DNA of 64,000 nucleotides, taken from IMG/VR virus record IMGVR_UViG_3300032086_001957. One strand, 5' to 3'. Source of the stretch: an uncultured virus (IMG/VR IMGVR_UViG_3300032086_001957) (lineage: Duplodnaviria; Heunggongvirae; Uroviricota; Caudoviricetes). Below are positions 2,699-54,344 of this stretch, in pieces. Within the stretch, counting starts at the first letter, position 1. The number at the start of each line of letters is the position of its first letter. A program made the translations under genes and the position numbers. The notes under the pieces are model-generated. The model was not told where the DNA came from, made no database searches, and worked only from the letters and a program-made list of their open reading frames with translations.

Positions 2699-4096
2699 TT
2701 ATATTTCTTGATTTATTTGTTTTCCTTGATCTGAATATGCAACACCATTTGATGGTAGCTCAGATGCAAGTGAATCTTTTCTACATTCTATGTATTGAGT
2801 GTATCTATGCACACCATCACCTCTTACAAAATTATGTCTTAATAGTGTTGCAAGATATCTTCCAGTCATATATTGATTAGTATTTGAATGTTTTGCACTT
2901 AATTCTAGATGAATTAAATCTCCTACCTGCGTTGTAGGGTTTCCTGGCACGGTAATTTTTGCACCAAATGATGTTTTGAGAACAGACATTCTAGATTTTC
3001 TTCGTTGCAACCATTGATCTGTACCATTATAATTATATATAAAAGTTCCATCTTCTTCAACATGATTTGCATTAAAAAGACCATCAACAACATTTCTATC
3101 AATAGTCTGCATATGAAATACTGAATCATAATTATCTGAAACTCTTAAACCAGAATCATCTGTTGCTTGTGATAGTGCAGGTTTGTTATCAGAATATTGG
3201 TTTTTTGAATCTGTATGTAAGTTGTTATCAAAATCATCTAGGTAATTATAATCATATGTTTTACTTACTTTGTTATGTAAATCTAATAATAAAAGTTTTG
3301 AAGAATACATACCGTTTCTTGTTGATGTTAATATATCAGGTGCAGAGAAAAATTCGTACGATAATAAGTTAAACATATTTTCTAGTGCATTGTTATGTTT
3401 TAAATTTGGTATCATTTCTGCATAACTCATTATCGGATTATCTTCATTGAACATACTATCTAATGTTCTAAAATGAAAGCCTTTTGTGGTTTCATAAAAT
3501 AAAAATGTTGGTGAGTAATTATACTTTGATGATAAACATCTTTGGGATAATTTATTAATGAAATCAAATGGTCTTTGATTCATTGCAATCATTTTGAAAT
3601 TGTTTGAAGTTTTTTCGTAGTAGAATTCTTTTTTAGAATTTAATTCATTTCGTAATATATTTTGAACCATATCAACTGATGGTTCACCTTCATATTTTTG
3701 ACTTATTCTAACTCTATTGTTGGTTAGTAGTTCTGGTGTAGTAAATGATAATACAACTACTTTTGTATTATCATTGAAATCTGTTACTATATTTACTTTT
3801 GTTATACTTAATGTTGTTTCTGTATAATCAATTGATACATCTCTGTCTTTTGAATTTTGACTTGGAACAGTTAATCTTAAGGCTAATTTTTCTTGACCTA
3901 CGATTGGTAAATTAGCTACTAAATCATTTGTATCAATAAATGATATATCACCAGTAATACTATTATTGAATATACTTTCATAGATATTTACACTCGCAAA
4001 TTGATCTTTTAGACTTATACTTGTTCCTGATAGAGTTAATATTGTGCAAGTTTCTATAATAAACTCACCAGCATAATTTAAACTTTTTTCTGACAT
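2699..4096 (-). CDS. Baseplate hub protein (gp27-like)
   Basis: Size, synteny downstream of gp53/gp48; NIYESIF...G.I...DTND, FYET..GFHF and GRYL...RH features of phage hub proteins. Confidence 0.6.
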   Translation of the reverse strand: MSEKSLNYAGEFIIETCTILTLSGTSISLKDQFASVNIYESIFNNSITGDISFIDTNDLVANLPIVGQEKLALRLTVPSQNSKDRDVSIDYTETTLSITKVNIVTDFNDNTKVVVLSFTTPELLTNNRVRISQKYEGEPSVDMVQNILRNELNSKKEFYYEKTSNNFKMIAMNQRPFDFINKLSQRCLSSKYNYSPTFLFYETTKGFHFRTLDSMFNEDNPIMSYAEMIPNLKHNNALENMFNLLSYEFFSAPDILTSTRNGMYSSKLLLLDLHNKVSKTYDYNYLDDFDNNLHTDSKNQYSDNKPALSQATDDSGLRVSDNYDSVFHMQTIDRNVVDGLFNANHVEEDGTFIYNYNGTDQWLQRRKSRMSVLKTSFGAKITVPGNPTTQVGDLIHLELSAKHSNTNQYMTGRYLATLLRHNFVRGDGVHRYTQYIECRKDSLASELPSNGVAYSDQGKQINQEI

Positions 4097-6075: not shown

Positions 6076-6645
6076 ATGGCAGAATCAATATTTGACAATA
6101 TATTAAAAAAATCTGGTGGAAAAGAGCGTTCTATTCAATGGTTTAGAAATCAGGTTAAAGAGTTTGGAACACCTACTATTAGAAAATTAGTAAGTGATGG
6201 TAGAGTTCGTGCAAGACCAAACTTTGGACTTATGAATTTCTTTGTGTACAGTCCTAAACATGAGGAAAAATTACCATACTATGACAGATTCCCTTTAGTT
6301 TTACCAATCGAAGCTTACAACAATGGTTTTTTAGGTTTGAATTTTCATTACTTATCAATACCATTGAGAGTTCGATTGTTAAATGTAATTTCTGAATATT
6401 CTAATAATACACTTATGAATGAGGATACTAGAATAAGATTGACATGGAATAGAATTAAGAGAAACCCTTTAGTTCAACCTACTGTAAAAAGATATTTAAT
6501 TGACCATGTTCAAACACCTTTTAGAGTTATTAATGCAGAAGAAATGATGGTTGCAGTTTTATTACCAGTTCAAAGATTTATAAAAGCAACTCCTGAAAAA
6601 GTATATTCAGATTCAAGAAAAAGAATTAATAGAGGATTTTACTAA
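6076..6645 (+). CDS. gp2: DNA end protector gp2
   Basis: LPYYDRFPLV, GFLGLNFHYL, VKRYL..HV. Confidence 0.92.
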   Translation: MAESIFDNILKKSGGKERSIQWFRNQVKEFGTPTIRKLVSDGRVRARPNFGLMNFFVYSPKHEEKLPYYDRFPLVLPIEAYNNGFLGLNFHYLSIPLRVRLLNVISEYSNNTLMNEDTRIRLTWNRIKRNPLVQPTVKRYLIDHVQTPFRVINAEEMMVAVLLPVQRFIKATPEKVYSDSRKRINRGFY

Positions 6646-11566: not shown

Positions 11567-11591
11567 CTGACCTTGAATTTCTCAAGGTCAG
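11567..11591. terminator. Hairpin after the 464-aa ORF
   Basis: CTGACCTTGA/TCAAGGTCAG 10-bp stem; weak U-tail. Confidence 0.45.
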
Positions 11592-35921: not shown

Positions 35922-36182
35922 TCAACTCAATGCTTCAGTTACAGCATTATTGTCTTGCGAAGGAATGCTACTAGCGGGATTCGCCTCACCTAATTGTTGC
36001 AAAAACAAATCACATTGTTGTATTGCACCGTTAAGTGCAACAATTTGTGATTGTAATTGAACTTTCGCTTTATCTATGTTCTGTAACTGACCTTGAACTT
36101 TATCAAGGTCAGATTTCAGAGTTTCTTTTTGTTTATTAATATCATCAACTTTCAAACTTTTTGAATTATTTGGCATAATCAT
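35922..36182 (-). CDS. Coiled-coil hypothetical protein
   Basis: LNGAIQQCD.FL heptads. Confidence 0.6.
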   Translation of the reverse strand: MIMPNNSKSLKVDDINKQKETLKSDLDKVQGQLQNIDKAKVQLQSQIVALNGAIQQCDLFLQQLGEANPASSIPSQDNNAVTEALS

Positions 36183-52142: not shown

Positions 52143-52423
52143 TTTTTACCTTTCAGTATTTCATCATGATTATAAATTGCCATGATTGTGTAATGTATTA
52201 TCTTCATCAAATCATTACGATTGTATCCACTTTTCTTTCCATATCTTTGTGCATACTTCATAATGTTACCAATACAAAAACCTTCACCATGACCATTGTC
52301 CATTATAAATTCAGTTGCTTGAAATTTATTTCTGGAGTAATGTTCAGAGTATGTCTTTGCAACATACTCTGAAACATCTTTAAGGATTTTGTCCTCATTA
52401 TACTTACAGTTTTTAATAGGCAT
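52139..52423 (-). CDS. DUF3310-like protein
   Basis: Y..HY, GFC.GN.MKY..RYGKK, DL.K..HY. Confidence 0.8.
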   Translation of the reverse strand: MPIKNCKYNEDKILKDVSEYVAKTYSEHYSRNKFQATEFIMDNGHGEGFCIGNIMKYAQRYGKKSGYNRNDLMKIIHYTIMAIYNHDEILKGKK

Positions 52424-52667
52424 ACTGTGTATCGAGAACCTTTTCGATTCCTGCGGCTATGATAGCTTTAGAAGGTGTTCCAAGTCTATAATTGACTTCA
52501 CCATCTACTTTATTTTCATAAATGCAGAAACCTCTTTTGCGAAGTGTATGAATTAACTTCGTAGGTGAGGTTAAGTCAAATCTGCTTCTTAAAGTTTTCC
52601 AAGAAACATTTTTGCCCTTCATAAGTAGATTTACTACTTTTTGAGTTTTACTTAACTTTTTATACAT
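52413..52667 (-). CDS. Winged-HTH-like protein
   Basis: SKTQKV..LL, RF.L.SP...I..LR..G..IY.N, YRLG.PSK. Confidence 0.6.
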   Translation of the reverse strand: MYKKLSKTQKVVNLLMKGKNVSWKTLRSRFDLTSPTKLIHTLRKRGFCIYENKVDGEVNYRLGTPSKAIIAAGIEKVLDTQYAY

Positions 52668-52696
52668 AATATATCTCCATAACGATTTAATAACAA

Positions 52697-52726
52697 ATTA
52701 TAACACAAAATAAACTTATTTGTCAA
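52697..52726 (-). promoter_or_regulatory. Sigma70-type promoter
   Basis: TTGACA-18-TATAAT. Confidence 0.6.
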
Positions 52727-52729
52727 GTA

Positions 52730-53152
52730 TTACTTTATGTCTATCAAACGAGGCTTCTTTTCCTCTGGAATGATTCTTTCAAGGTCAATAACCAAAAGTC
52801 CATGTTCTAATGATGCACCATTTACAACAACATCTTCAGCAAGGTTAAACTTTCTTTCAAAATGTCTTTTTGAAATACCTCTGTGTAGATATTCTTGATC
52901 GTCATCTTTAGAAACATCTTTTGTTCTTATAACAAGAACATTTTCTTTGGTTTCAATTTCGATATCATCTTTTTGAAAACCAGCAAGTGCAATTTCAATT
53001 TTGTACTTGTCGTCTTTCTCATGAATGATATTGTATGGTGGGTAGCTTTGATTAGAATATACATCATCTAATAATCTATCGAACATTCTATCAAAACCAA
53101 TTGAGTATGTTTTGACCCTAGCAGGGTCGAGGTGTGCTAATGAATTTACCAT
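52730..53152 (-). CDS. Small heat-shock protein Hsp20 (IbpA-like)
   Basis: IGFDR.F, YPPYNI, EIALAGF, YLHRGIS.R.F, GLL.I.L...IPE..KPR.I.I. Confidence 0.96.
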   Translation of the reverse strand: MVNSLAHLDPARVKTYSIGFDRMFDRLLDDVYSNQSYPPYNIIHEKDDKYKIEIALAGFQKDDIEIETKENVLVIRTKDVSKDDDQEYLHRGISKRHFERKFNLAEDVVVNGASLEHGLLVIDLERIIPEEKKPRLIDIK

Positions 53153-53158
53153 TGTATT

Positions 53159-53220
53159 ATCTCCTATTTAGCAAGATTAAAATGTAATACCCATAAGGCA
53201 TATTACGATAACTATTTATA
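53159..53220 (-). promoter_or_regulatory. Late promoter plus ROSE-like RNA thermometer of hsp20
   Basis: TATAAATA 53220-53213; leader hairpin; AUCUUGCU-AAAU-AGGAGAU pairs the SD with a bulged G. Confidence 0.7.
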
Positions 53221-53231
53221 CAAAAAGTATA

Positions 53232-53437
53232 AAAGAAATGATAATTTTTTTCTTTTTGGTGAGTGTAAAAAATTATCAAAAAACATTAACTCGGCAATTT
53301 AAGTTTCGTTTTTAGGAAAAATAAACTTAGCGCAGATGCTGAAACAAAACCGTAAAAGTTTTTTTTGGTTACGGATTAAAAACTTTCTGAAAACATATCC
53401 GTTCATATGAGGCTACCTAATAGGACTACCTCTGAAC
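53232..53437 (-). ncRNA. Putative structured ncRNA: hairpin plus tandem H-type pseudoknot modules
   Basis: Two clear P1/P2 crossing stem sets with shared AUGUUUU and ACCAAAAA linkers, one degenerate copy between them. Confidence 0.55.
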
Positions 53438-53438
53438 C

Positions 53439-54344
53439 TTAAGCAACTTCAGCATACTCAAGTGCTTTATCCAAAGCGTTGAGTTTAACTTTACGATTTC
53501 TACCGTACCATGCAGATACAAGTCTTGAATCGTTTTCTCTACCTTGCAAATGGTCAGTCATGTAAGTAACAGCATTAAATGCTTGCCACCATGAACCCTC
53601 ACCATATTTTGCACCAGGCTGAGTTTGTAAGTTATCATGTGCAAGTGAAGCGTTTCTAGAATTTTCACCAAAAACATCATTGAAGTATGCAGTAACATTT
53701 TCAGCAGTATATCTTTTTTTACCAAGAAATTGTGCCATTGATTTGTACTGTTCCATCTTCTCTCTTGCAATACCCATTTGTTGTTTAACTTCTTCTGCAT
53801 CAAATGGTTTTCTATGATTTACTGTTAACATTTTATCTGTACTTTGATTTAAAGACAATGTTAAAGTATTATTACATACAACTCGAACAGGTGTCATTCT
53901 GATATCAATACATTTACCAAACTTGTGTGGGTTTGTAAATAAGAAATAATTATCAGTAATATCACCATTGAATAATTCAAATGAATCTTTTGTTTTAGCA
54001 AGAGCCCAAACAATTTCACCATTTTTCAACGAACCTGCTGTGTGCATTTCCATATCACCTGCATTTACATATTCAGTAAAAAAATCAAATGCTTCTGAAT
54101 TTTGAACTGGATTCCAATTAGAACCAACAATATCTAAAACAGTATTATCTGATTGTCTTACAAGTGCTCTTTTACCATGCACTTCTGCACCAGATGATGT
54201 TGTAATAGTTTCTTTCTCAACTTTCCAATCAAGACCTGCTTTTCTCATAAATTGTTCAGTTGTCAAGTCAGCAGGAACTTTCTCTCCAAGACCGTGCCAT
54301 GGAACTTCACCTGCATAAGCCATTGTTTCTACATTGTGTGACAT
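53439..54344 (-). CDS. DUF932 / TIGR03299-family protein
   Basis: MSHNVETMAY....PWHGLG, AGLDW.V, PVQN.EAF, TAGSL..G, RVVCNNTL, W.AFNAVT. Confidence 0.92.
   Translation of the reverse strand: MSHNVETMAYAGEVPWHGLGEKVPADLTTEQFMRKAGLDWKVEKETITTSSGAEVHGKRALVRQSDNTVLDIVGSNWNPVQNSEAFDFFTEYVNAGDMEMHTAGSLKNGEIVWALAKTKDSFELFNGDITDNYFLFTNPHKFGKCIDIRMTPVRVVCNNTLTLSLNQSTDKMLTVNHRKPFDAEEVKQQMGIAREKMEQYKSMAQFLGKKRYTAENVTAYFNDVFGENSRNASLAHDNLQTQPGAKYGEGSWWQAFNAVTYMTDHLQGRENDSRLVSAWYGRNRKVKLNALDKALEYAEVA

Follow-up and report, generated by a model that had tools for sequence, protein, structure and literature searches.

Three RNA modules, A, B and C, which lie in tandem in a 64,000-nucleotide (nt) stretch of DNA from an uncultured virus (IMG/VR record IMGVR_UViG_3300032086_001957; the whole stretch is referred to as the window), were identified as probable multiplied derivatives of one H-type pseudoknot, an assignment that is fairly well supported by sequence comparison with related phages. 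The array (53402-53239, minus strand) sits between a DUF932 gene and an hsp20 gene, in a gap of 286 nt. In many relatives the same gap, referred to as the slot, holds an RNA that ends in the pseudoknot in question (the knot) and whose stems covary. What the modules do is a best guess. The reading that we tentatively prefer, with somewhat less than even confidence, is that modules A, B and C are A/U-rich tandem derivatives of this conserved knot and provide a 3'-end structure or insulator ahead of the hsp20 late promoter.

Pseudoknot modules in the DUF932-hsp20 gap

The array was originally predicted from the sequence of the window as a 5' hairpin followed by modules with H-type topology, in which a stem P1 crosses a stem P2, and the quoted strings and the crossing topology are indeed present on the minus strand. 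The 5' hairpin GUUCA..GAGG..CCUC..UGAAC (53401-53437, minus strand) lies directly 3' of the DUF932 stop and appears in both the minimum free energy (MFE) and the centroid folds. Module A (53354-53402, minus strand) is an H-type pseudoknot and the only module kept in the nearest relatives. Its P1 pairs ACGGAU (53402-53397) with AUCCGU (53376-53371) over 6 base pairs (bp), its P2 pairs AAAGUUUUU (53386-53378) with AAAAACUUU (53363-53355) over 9 bp, or 10 bp with a G.U pair, and its loops are L1 of 10 nt, L2 of 1 nt and L3 AACCAAA (7 nt). In module C (53239-53292, minus strand), likewise drawn as an H-type pseudoknot, P1 pairs GAGU (53292-53289) with ACUC (53264-53261) over 4 bp, P2 pairs UGAUAAUUUUUU (53278-53267) with AAAAAAUUAUCA (53250-53239) over 12 bp without a mismatch, and the loops are L1 of 10 nt, L2 AC (2 nt) and L3 ACCAAAAAGA (10 nt). 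The P2 stems of both modules were also found as perfect inverted repeats in the repeat search. Module C is followed by the U-rich tail UUUCUUUUAUACUUUUUG (53221-53238, minus strand).

The degenerate middle copy that had been predicted between the two corresponds to module B (53300-53353, minus strand), a looser unit recognized from the repeat search, the score of a model of the relatives' knot and the count of a 9-mer. Module B starts with this 9-mer, ACGGUUUUG, which is identical to the P1-5' arm and L1 of the CGG clade of relatives and occurs once in 64 kb with 0.30 occurrences expected. An insert follows, then a plain 13-bp hairpin with two mismatches (53329-53300), and the P1-3' arm is decayed to CCU. 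The unit lengths of modules A, B and C are 49, 54 and 54 nt. An alternative, terminator-like pairing at 53347-53377 (minus strand) joins the P1-3' arm of module A and its flank, AAUCCGUAA, to the start of module B, UUACGGUUU, and is followed by UUGUUUC; this pairing is confined to the three-module form.

Two matches to the pattern ATGTTTT-N12-40-ACCAAAA were found in the 64 kb, both of them in the array, against an expectation of 0.24, and 5 of 100 shuffles give at least two occurrences. The window contains 21 perfect hairpins with a stem of 9 bp or more and a loop of 6-22 nt, two of them in the 286-nt gap. For the 19 other hairpins the best pairing of the loop with the 30 nt upstream was 2-6 nt; 12 of the 19 reach the 4 bp of module C and one reaches the 6 bp of module A, so that P1 of module C alone is not beyond chance and P1 of module A is marginal. 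Whole knots were scored with a purpose-made simple pseudoknot finder and compared with 300 dinucleotide shuffles of the gap. Module A as originally drawn scores 31.3, the best knot per shuffle has a mean score of 23.6 (standard deviation 2.9, maximum 32.1), and a second knot reaching 31.3 was found in 0 of the 300 shuffles. The top knot of the gap, with a score of 37.6, is not module C as drawn, but the 12-bp hairpin of module C with its loop CAAAAAG paired to CUUUUUG at 53227-53221 in the U-rich tail. The gap has more interleaved pairing than any of the 300 shuffles. Whole-gap MFE folding was unremarkable on both strands (z = -1.07 and -1.58). Tandem Repeats Finder (TRF) reported no tandem array in the array region at a minimum score of 30, because the modules have diverged too far for a repeat to be recognized at the sequence level; the repeat search of the array returned just one 11-nt direct repeat.

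The slot RNA and its knot in relatives

The window is part of a T4-like, Melnitz-like marine myophage, and among named phages the Methylophilales (OM43) phages Melnitz (Kyanoviridae) are closest to it, with about 70% nt identity over 79% of a 1.7-kb query. The slot was read in some 240 loci (L numbers below) found with DUF932 and Hsp20 queries. Its content differs among relatives and is a plain hairpin, a tRNA, a permuted transfer-messenger RNA (tmRNA) or an RNA of about 100 nt, and the slot can be described as a putative hot spot of RNA-gene turnover. A plain G+C-rich hairpin with the box TATAAATA at once after it is present in L008-L017, a tRNA in L054, L055, L125 and L135, and a permuted tmRNA in L069, L070, L076, L079, L147, L152 and others. 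The commonest content among Hsp20-linked loci is the RNA-like unit of about 100 nt, the slot RNA. It is made up, in this order, of promoter-like boxes (TTGAC-N17-TATAAT; the L057 clade has TATAAATA instead), hairpin 1 with the invariant loop GUUCRUAAG, hairpin 2 with a loop that ends in CCUACUCU, and the 3' knot, after which come TATAAATA in most relatives, a hairpin and the UCUUGCU..AGGAG leader of hsp20. In many relatives (e.g., L018, L033, L169), the L056 and L057 clades not among them, the 3' side of the hairpin-2 loop, ACUCU, is complementary to the P1-5' arm AGRGU of the knot and could be an alternative pairing.

The relatives' knot, of which Melnitz-like and pelagimyophage-like phages have a single copy in the slot, runs from an xGRG or CGG arm through UUU(U), GGnnGUU(U), a CYC or CCG arm and a (C/U)-rich, then A-rich loop to AACnnCC(A) and a tail of CUUU or UUAU. 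A covariance model of its P2 hairpin (R1), built from 25 sequences, has exactly one match in 63 of 63 loci that were chosen for showing the slot RNA (34-61 bits), and one match in the complete Melnitz genome. P1 was assigned by a rule that is blind to the 5' arm, with the 3' arm beginning at the first C after P2-5'. With this rule the P1 core cells are paired in 144 of 144 cases in 48 distinct sequences, which 0 of 5000 permutations reach. The arm pairs are GAG/CUC (28), GGG/CCC (11), CGG/CCG (8) and GGG/CCU (1), extended by a fourth pair to GGAG/CUCC in 17 sequences and to AGAG/CUCU in 8. On fixed columns, where about a third of the rows are out of register, 92.8% of the cells are paired, compared to 82.4% after shuffling and 37-65% after sliding; 68 double-change cells are found versus 22, and the pair 7-22 is A-U in 21 and G-C in 20 sequences. 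RNAalifold supported both hairpin 1 and P2, 11 of 13 pairs showing compensatory changes, and G.U pairs in the knots occur on the gene strand only. The same P2 is found with different types of P1 (GGUAGUU with GGG, GAG and CGG; GGCAGUU with GGG and GGAG), which argues for P1 changes in more than one event, the cells being counted without a tree. The covariation of both P1 and P2 in relatives, proposed as a check of the array, was found, and the compensatory changes back the H-type topology. Rfam returned no family for the slot RNA in 12 relatives' loci, in L059 and L021, or in Melnitz. We therefore regard the slot RNA and its knot as a covariation-supported candidate RNA family with no Rfam family of its own and with no earlier description in the searches made.

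In Melnitz, a 34-amino-acid (aa) hypothetical protein, Melnitz1EXVC043M_221 (L001 1967-2071), is annotated over the slot RNA with its covarying stems, and this coding sequence is probably an RNA gene. A tmRNA and a glutamine riboswitch have been described for Melnitz at another locus, and the slot is not mentioned in the part of that article considered here (PMC9004378). No paper on pseudoknots in pelagiphages was found, and the top matches of the literature search held nothing relevant on small RNAs of pelagimyophages. By analogy with the Melnitz annotation, the region in the window could code for a small protein, with the pairings incidental: a 35-aa open reading frame (ORF) at 53299-53406 and a 40-aa ORF at 53157-53279 both exist. 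However, a 2-nt difference in L002-L005, L007 and L085 cuts the 35-aa frame to 11 codons (read by eye), which argues that this frame over module A is not a gene. In addition, the region is deleted in close relatives, and the changes seen in relatives are compensatory changes of the RNA type. We consider the coding explanation hardly credible.

The knot also occurs outside the slot RNA. R1 gives matches of 26-29 bits (E ~1e-3 in 76 kb) in relatives with a permuted tmRNA in the slot. In L069, L070, L071, L079, L154 and L155 the match lies 5-6 nt after the tag stop and inside the ARAGORN gene, and in L076 and its duplicates it lies at the 3' end of the Rfam beta_tmRNA match. The Rfam beta_tmRNA consensus has the same layout, with GGG, then a hairpin of 6 bp with CCU as the first bases of its loop, and an A-rich loop. 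According to the part of PMC11915505 considered here, a tmRNA usually contains four pseudoknots. Bacterial beta tmRNA has a separate G+C-rich hairpin 3' of the knot, and the phage copy matches that hairpin poorly. When the 3' parts of the tmRNAs were aligned with the slot RNA, the knot alone aligned, and a likeness between hairpin 1 and the tag region was unsupported. A free-standing knot, AAGAG-UU-GGUGGUU-CUCUU-UAAA-ACCACC, was observed in L072 (2099-2136), L151 (2272-2309) and L064 (3817-3854). This copy lies about 210 nt past the tmRNA, and only a few bases separate it from the stop codon of a preceding small ORF that is rich in lysine and alanine; in L072 there is no U tract behind it, and another gene begins about 20 nt later. 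Since the knot is found in the slot RNA, in tmRNA and after an ORF, it is a modular element with at least three settings.

The array had been put forward as an undescribed repeated non-coding RNA. This holds in so far as no Rfam family matches: there were no hits at gathering score in the whole window, and in E-value mode (53100-53500, E up to 10) the best hit was CopA with 25.2 bits against a gathering score of 60, which we take as chance. It does not hold for the architecture and part of the sequence, which match the pseudoknot of permuted tmRNA. The knot thus seems to be uncatalogued as a free element, yet a variant of a known tmRNA pseudoknot. It is conceivable that the knot comes from the phage two-piece tmRNA, was freed from the tmRNA body, and was kept as a portable, copy-number-variable module, either with a tmRNA-related activity (e.g., titrating SmpB or another host ribosome-rescue factor) or as a heat-labile gate before hsp20; we think this quite improbable. 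ARAGORN found no tRNA or tmRNA gene and no tag peptide in the window, which has no tRNA-like domain, and what lies 5' of module A is the DUF932 stop with a hairpin instead of a tag frame.

Descent, copy number and possible role of the modules

The modules share slot and strand with the relatives' knot. The best R1 match in the 128 kb of searched strand, and thus in the window, is module C (11.7 bits, E 2.9), so that it falls inside the 286-nt gap, and with filters off module B scores 7.2 bits and module A 1.2 bits. Because these scores are not significant, the homology of the modules rests on synteny and short shared motifs. The P2 of module C, UGAUAAUUU..., matches UGAUAGUUU of L176 with one compensated change from G-C to A-U and a longer U/A run. 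Its P1 is of the GAG/CUC type, and the P1 of module A contains CGG/CCG. As in the knot of the slot RNA, P1 of modules A and C pairs directly after P2-5' and L3 is A-rich, with loops that are longer than those of the relatives. We conclude that modules A and C probably descend from the family knot, and are less sure that they still fold as knots in vivo.

Eight contigs with an identical DUF932 protein, found with a DUF932 query, were compared. L006 matches the window sequence, and L007 has modules B and C with a variant module A. Module A alone is present in L002-L005 and in L085, the sole new close haplotype from a metagenome DUF932 scan; here the gap is 169-170 nt versus 283-286 nt. The nearest record, G001, has the short variant and no match to the linker pattern. 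The 114-nt stretch that is missing (53239-53352, minus strand; gap of 283 nt in L007 versus 169 nt in L002) is bounded in L007 by the direct repeats TTTTGTTT. The one-module form, with its joint, was also seen in RNA-library contigs from three runs of three studies with both alleles AUCCGU and AUUCGU, which shows presence only and not transcription; one of these contigs (2776 nt) spans DUF932 to hsp20. Positions 53274-53355 are covered by no contig from four RNA-library runs, from which we draw no inference on transcription of the three-module form. All eight close relatives examined retain module A, and its sole P1 change is from G-C to G.U (AUCCGU/AUUCGU), an allele that pairs on the gene strand alone. 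The tandem array itself appears to be a lineage-specific, dispensable multiplication.

The linkers AUGUUUU and ACCAAAAA, which had been taken as conserved loops of the array, vary in the nearest relatives, where AACCAAA changes to GAACAAA and AUGUUUUCAG to AUGUUUUA; they appear to be local and not a signature of the family. The pattern ATGTTTT..TTTTT..ACCAAAAA was tried as such a signature and rejected: in 21 of the 64 parts of IMG/VR it returned 118 loci, with a best knot score of 24.5 versus 30-31 for the modules. An exact 20-mer of module B found nothing in IMG/VR beyond two already-known contigs.

The main null explanation is that the array is a decaying remnant, in which the P2 hairpins alone are real, and the P1 crossings and linkers are leftovers or chance in a slipping A/T-rich spacer that has no function here. 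Such decay would account for the chance-level P1 of module C, matched by 12 of the 19 other hairpins, for the visible degeneracy of module B, for the absence of modules B and C from L002-L005, L085 and the contigs of the three RNA-library runs, and for an indel bounded by short direct repeats; the R1 scores and the whole-gap z of -1.07 are in line with it. It fits less well with the retention of module A in all eight close relatives, with the observation that no shuffle contains two knots this good, and with the clear selection on the family knot in relatives. We regard a mere remnant as a minority possibility that deserves to be taken seriously; if it were correct, the local finding would be minor and the family in relatives would stand.

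In the 3'-end or insulator reading that we prefer, the lineage of the window would have lost the body of the slot RNA (promoter boxes and two hairpins) and kept the knot alone, in one copy in most close relatives and in three copies here, module B having decayed. The RNA, on the gene strand, would be the last part of the DUF932 transcript. In every module P1 would form, with the U-rich L1 along the U-A end of P2 and the A-rich L3 along P1, and the knot with the U-rich stretch after P2 would give a compact 3'-end structure that stops or slows RNA polymerase and blocks 3'-to-5' exonucleases. In this way the upstream transcription unit would be closed just ahead of the hsp20 late promoter, and extra module copies would be redundant and dispensable. 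This promoter, before which the array had been predicted to lie, is represented by the box TATAAATA at 53213-53220 (minus strand), assigned by the T4-type late promoter consensus and found as the same box in the same place in relatives. We favor a 3'-end or insulator role because of the constant position by TATAAATA, the U-rich tails (after P2 in the window, CUUU or UUAU in relatives), the presence of a plain hairpin in place of the knot in L008-L017, and the survival of the knot in the lineage of the window, from which the other parts of the RNA are gone.

Several results weigh against this role or against the identity of the modules. A standard terminator scan of this strand called nothing in 52600-53700. 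The knot of L072 has no U tract and bacterial beta tmRNA has its own G+C-rich hairpin after the knot, so that termination by the knot itself is unproven. In L169-L174 and the L057 clade there is no late promoter between the knot and hsp20, and transcripts there must read through the knot. A consensus scan called no promoter upstream of the array on its strand, and the box-class early promoter that had been predicted there finds no sigma-70-like counterpart. The stems are weak, with predicted energies at 37 C of -4.9 (A P1), -4.4 (A P2), -1.1 (C P1) and -6.6 (C P2) kcal/mol, the P2 stems being A/U-only and of low stability, and P1 of module C by itself is no better than chance. Competing pairings exist between CCGU of module A and ACGG of module B and between the loop of module C and the downstream CUUUUUG, and the last two bases of the 5' hairpin overlap P1 of module A. 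The loops L1 (10 nt) and L2 (1-2 nt) are longer than those of relatives (2-6 nt and 0), the R1 scores on all three modules are not significant, and modules B and C are dispensable, as they are absent in nearest relatives. Motifs of slot-RNA hairpins 1 and 2 gave 10 matches with up to 2 mismatches in the window versus 7.1 expected, none of them in the gap; hairpin-1 candidates at 6227 and 5875 were dismissed on reading. Finally, the RNA-library contigs are of the one-module form only, show presence only and cannot show RNA ends.

The main functional rival is regulated read-through, in which the knot senses temperature, a ligand or a protein and gates upstream transcripts into hsp20 together with a ROSE-like Shine-Dalgarno hairpin, the tandem copies sharpening the response. 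In its favor, no promoter-proximal unit other than the knot-bearing RNA precedes hsp20 in L169-L174 and in the L057 clade, whose RNA comes after TATAAATA, P1 is short and marginally stable and hence heat-labile, and the downstream gene is a heat-shock gene with a UUGCU/AGGAG leader hairpin. The pairing of the hairpin-2 loop ACUCU with P1-5' AGRGU would offer an alternative state in many relatives, but it does not covary and is broken in the L057 and L056 clades. Read-through into hsp20 also does not fit L021 and L026, where a different promoter and a different gene come after the slot RNA, L072, where the knot follows an unrelated ORF, or the window, which has a late promoter between the modules and hsp20. 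For a ligand sensor, as had been suggested, the relatives' L2 of 0 leaves no obvious ligand pocket, and Rfam reported no riboswitch family for 53100-53500 at E up to 10, for L059 and L021 or for the Melnitz slot RNA. We hold regulated read-through to be unlikely, and the ligand-sensor proposal finds no support in these results.

If the preferred 3'-end or insulator reading is true, the family would be an uncatalogued covarying RNA family in phages of SAR11- and OM43-type hosts that are abundant in the sea, annotated as a protein in at least one reference genome, and a tmRNA substructure living outside tmRNA, with a copy number that differs between phages with an identical DUF932 protein. Together with the ROSE-like hsp20 leader it would point to RNA-level control around a phage heat-shock gene, in a group of which Melnitz/OM43 is culturable.

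Gene neighborhood and comparison with known RNA systems

The upstream neighbor of the array is the DUF932 gene (53439-54344, minus strand; from the ORF list; Pfam PF06067, E 1.1e-37; stop codon at 53441-53439), and the downstream neighbor is hsp20 (52730-53152, minus strand; Pfam PF00011, E 5.3e-19), followed by genes for a helix-turn-helix (HTH) protein, DUF3310, the gp45 sliding clamp and the gp44 clamp loader. A perfect sigma-70 consensus (12/12; TTGACA, 18 nt, TG-TATAAT) was observed at 52697-52726 (minus strand), directly 3' of the hsp20 stop and ahead of the HTH gene (52413-52667). Elsewhere in the window, the hairpins at 11567-11591 and 36087-36112 have the common stem CTGACCTTG(A)/(T)CAAGGTCAG and different loops, and may be a repeated regulatory or terminator hairpin.

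The 5' leader of hsp20 (53153-53206, minus strand) consists of a hairpin (53206-53184) and UCUUGCU (53176-53170) facing the Shine-Dalgarno sequence AGGAG (53165-53161), and is conserved in relatives. Across most relatives examined the hairpin is kept and is followed by (A)UCUUGCU(U)AA..AGGAGA ahead of the start codon. UUGCU opposite AGGAG with a G.G mismatch is the hallmark of ROSE thermometers. The Rfam ROSE model matches the L059 leader (3600-3688) weakly, with 26.7 bits versus a gathering score of 45, and is not listed for 53100-53500 of the window at E up to 10. The leader of this phage heat-shock gene may thus act as a phage-encoded RNA thermometer; titles and abstracts on RNA thermometers with phage hsp20 gave nothing relevant.

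A decoy that mimics type III toxin-antitoxin antitoxins (ToxI-like), or a nuclease-blocking counter-defense array, had also been suggested. ToxI-like antitoxins are likewise tandem units each able to form a pseudoknot, phage-borne ToxI mimics are known, and the module copy number varies between near-identical phages. The array differs in that its units are not uniform (no repeat of about 34-36 nt, and none seen by TRF), and most relatives have a single copy inside a longer RNA or tmRNA. No antitoxin RNA family was reported by Rfam for 53100-53500 at E up to 10, and no endoribonuclease or other toxin gene is present among the neighbors (DUF932, Hsp20, HTH, DUF3310, sliding clamp). A decoy is very unlikely and finds no support in these data.

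Like intrinsic terminators, the modules have a hairpin and a U-rich run at the unit end and lie between an upstream gene and the next promoter; in contrast to these, their stems are almost purely A-U, their loops of 14-16 nt are engaged in a second helix, and the consensus scan does not call them. Triple-helix H-type pseudoknots are known from telomerase RNA and the SAM-II/SAM-V and preQ1-II riboswitches. The modules resemble these systems in having an A-rich L3 that runs along P1 and a U-rich L1 placed over the U-A pairs where P2 meets the junction, and the U.A-U triple-helix geometry that had been suggested is plausible from their sequence. They differ from them in that Rfam matches none of these systems (SAM-II, SAM-V and preQ1-I/II models are not listed for 53100-53500 at E up to 10 or at gathering score in the window), the relatives' L2 is 0 with no ligand-pocket nucleotides between the helices, and P2-3' contains no Shine-Dalgarno sequence.

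The closest likenesses are those to tmRNA and to the slot RNA. Compared to tmRNA (RF01850, RF04321), the window has no tRNA-like domain, tag frame or tmRNA call, and its knots are A/U-rich, free-standing and in tandem, with longer L1 and L2. The relatives' knot has the same H-type layout as permuted (two-piece) tmRNA (RF01850) and partly the same sequence, (U)AGGG-UUU(C)-GGUnGGUU(U)-CCU..-A-rich loop-AACCnACC-CUUU. Compared to the Melnitz-like slot RNA, the window has three knots instead of one and is without the promoter boxes, hairpin 1 (loop GUUCGUAAG) and hairpin 2 (loop CCUACUCU), and the two share the slot, the strand and the 3' knot architecture beside the hsp20 late promoter.

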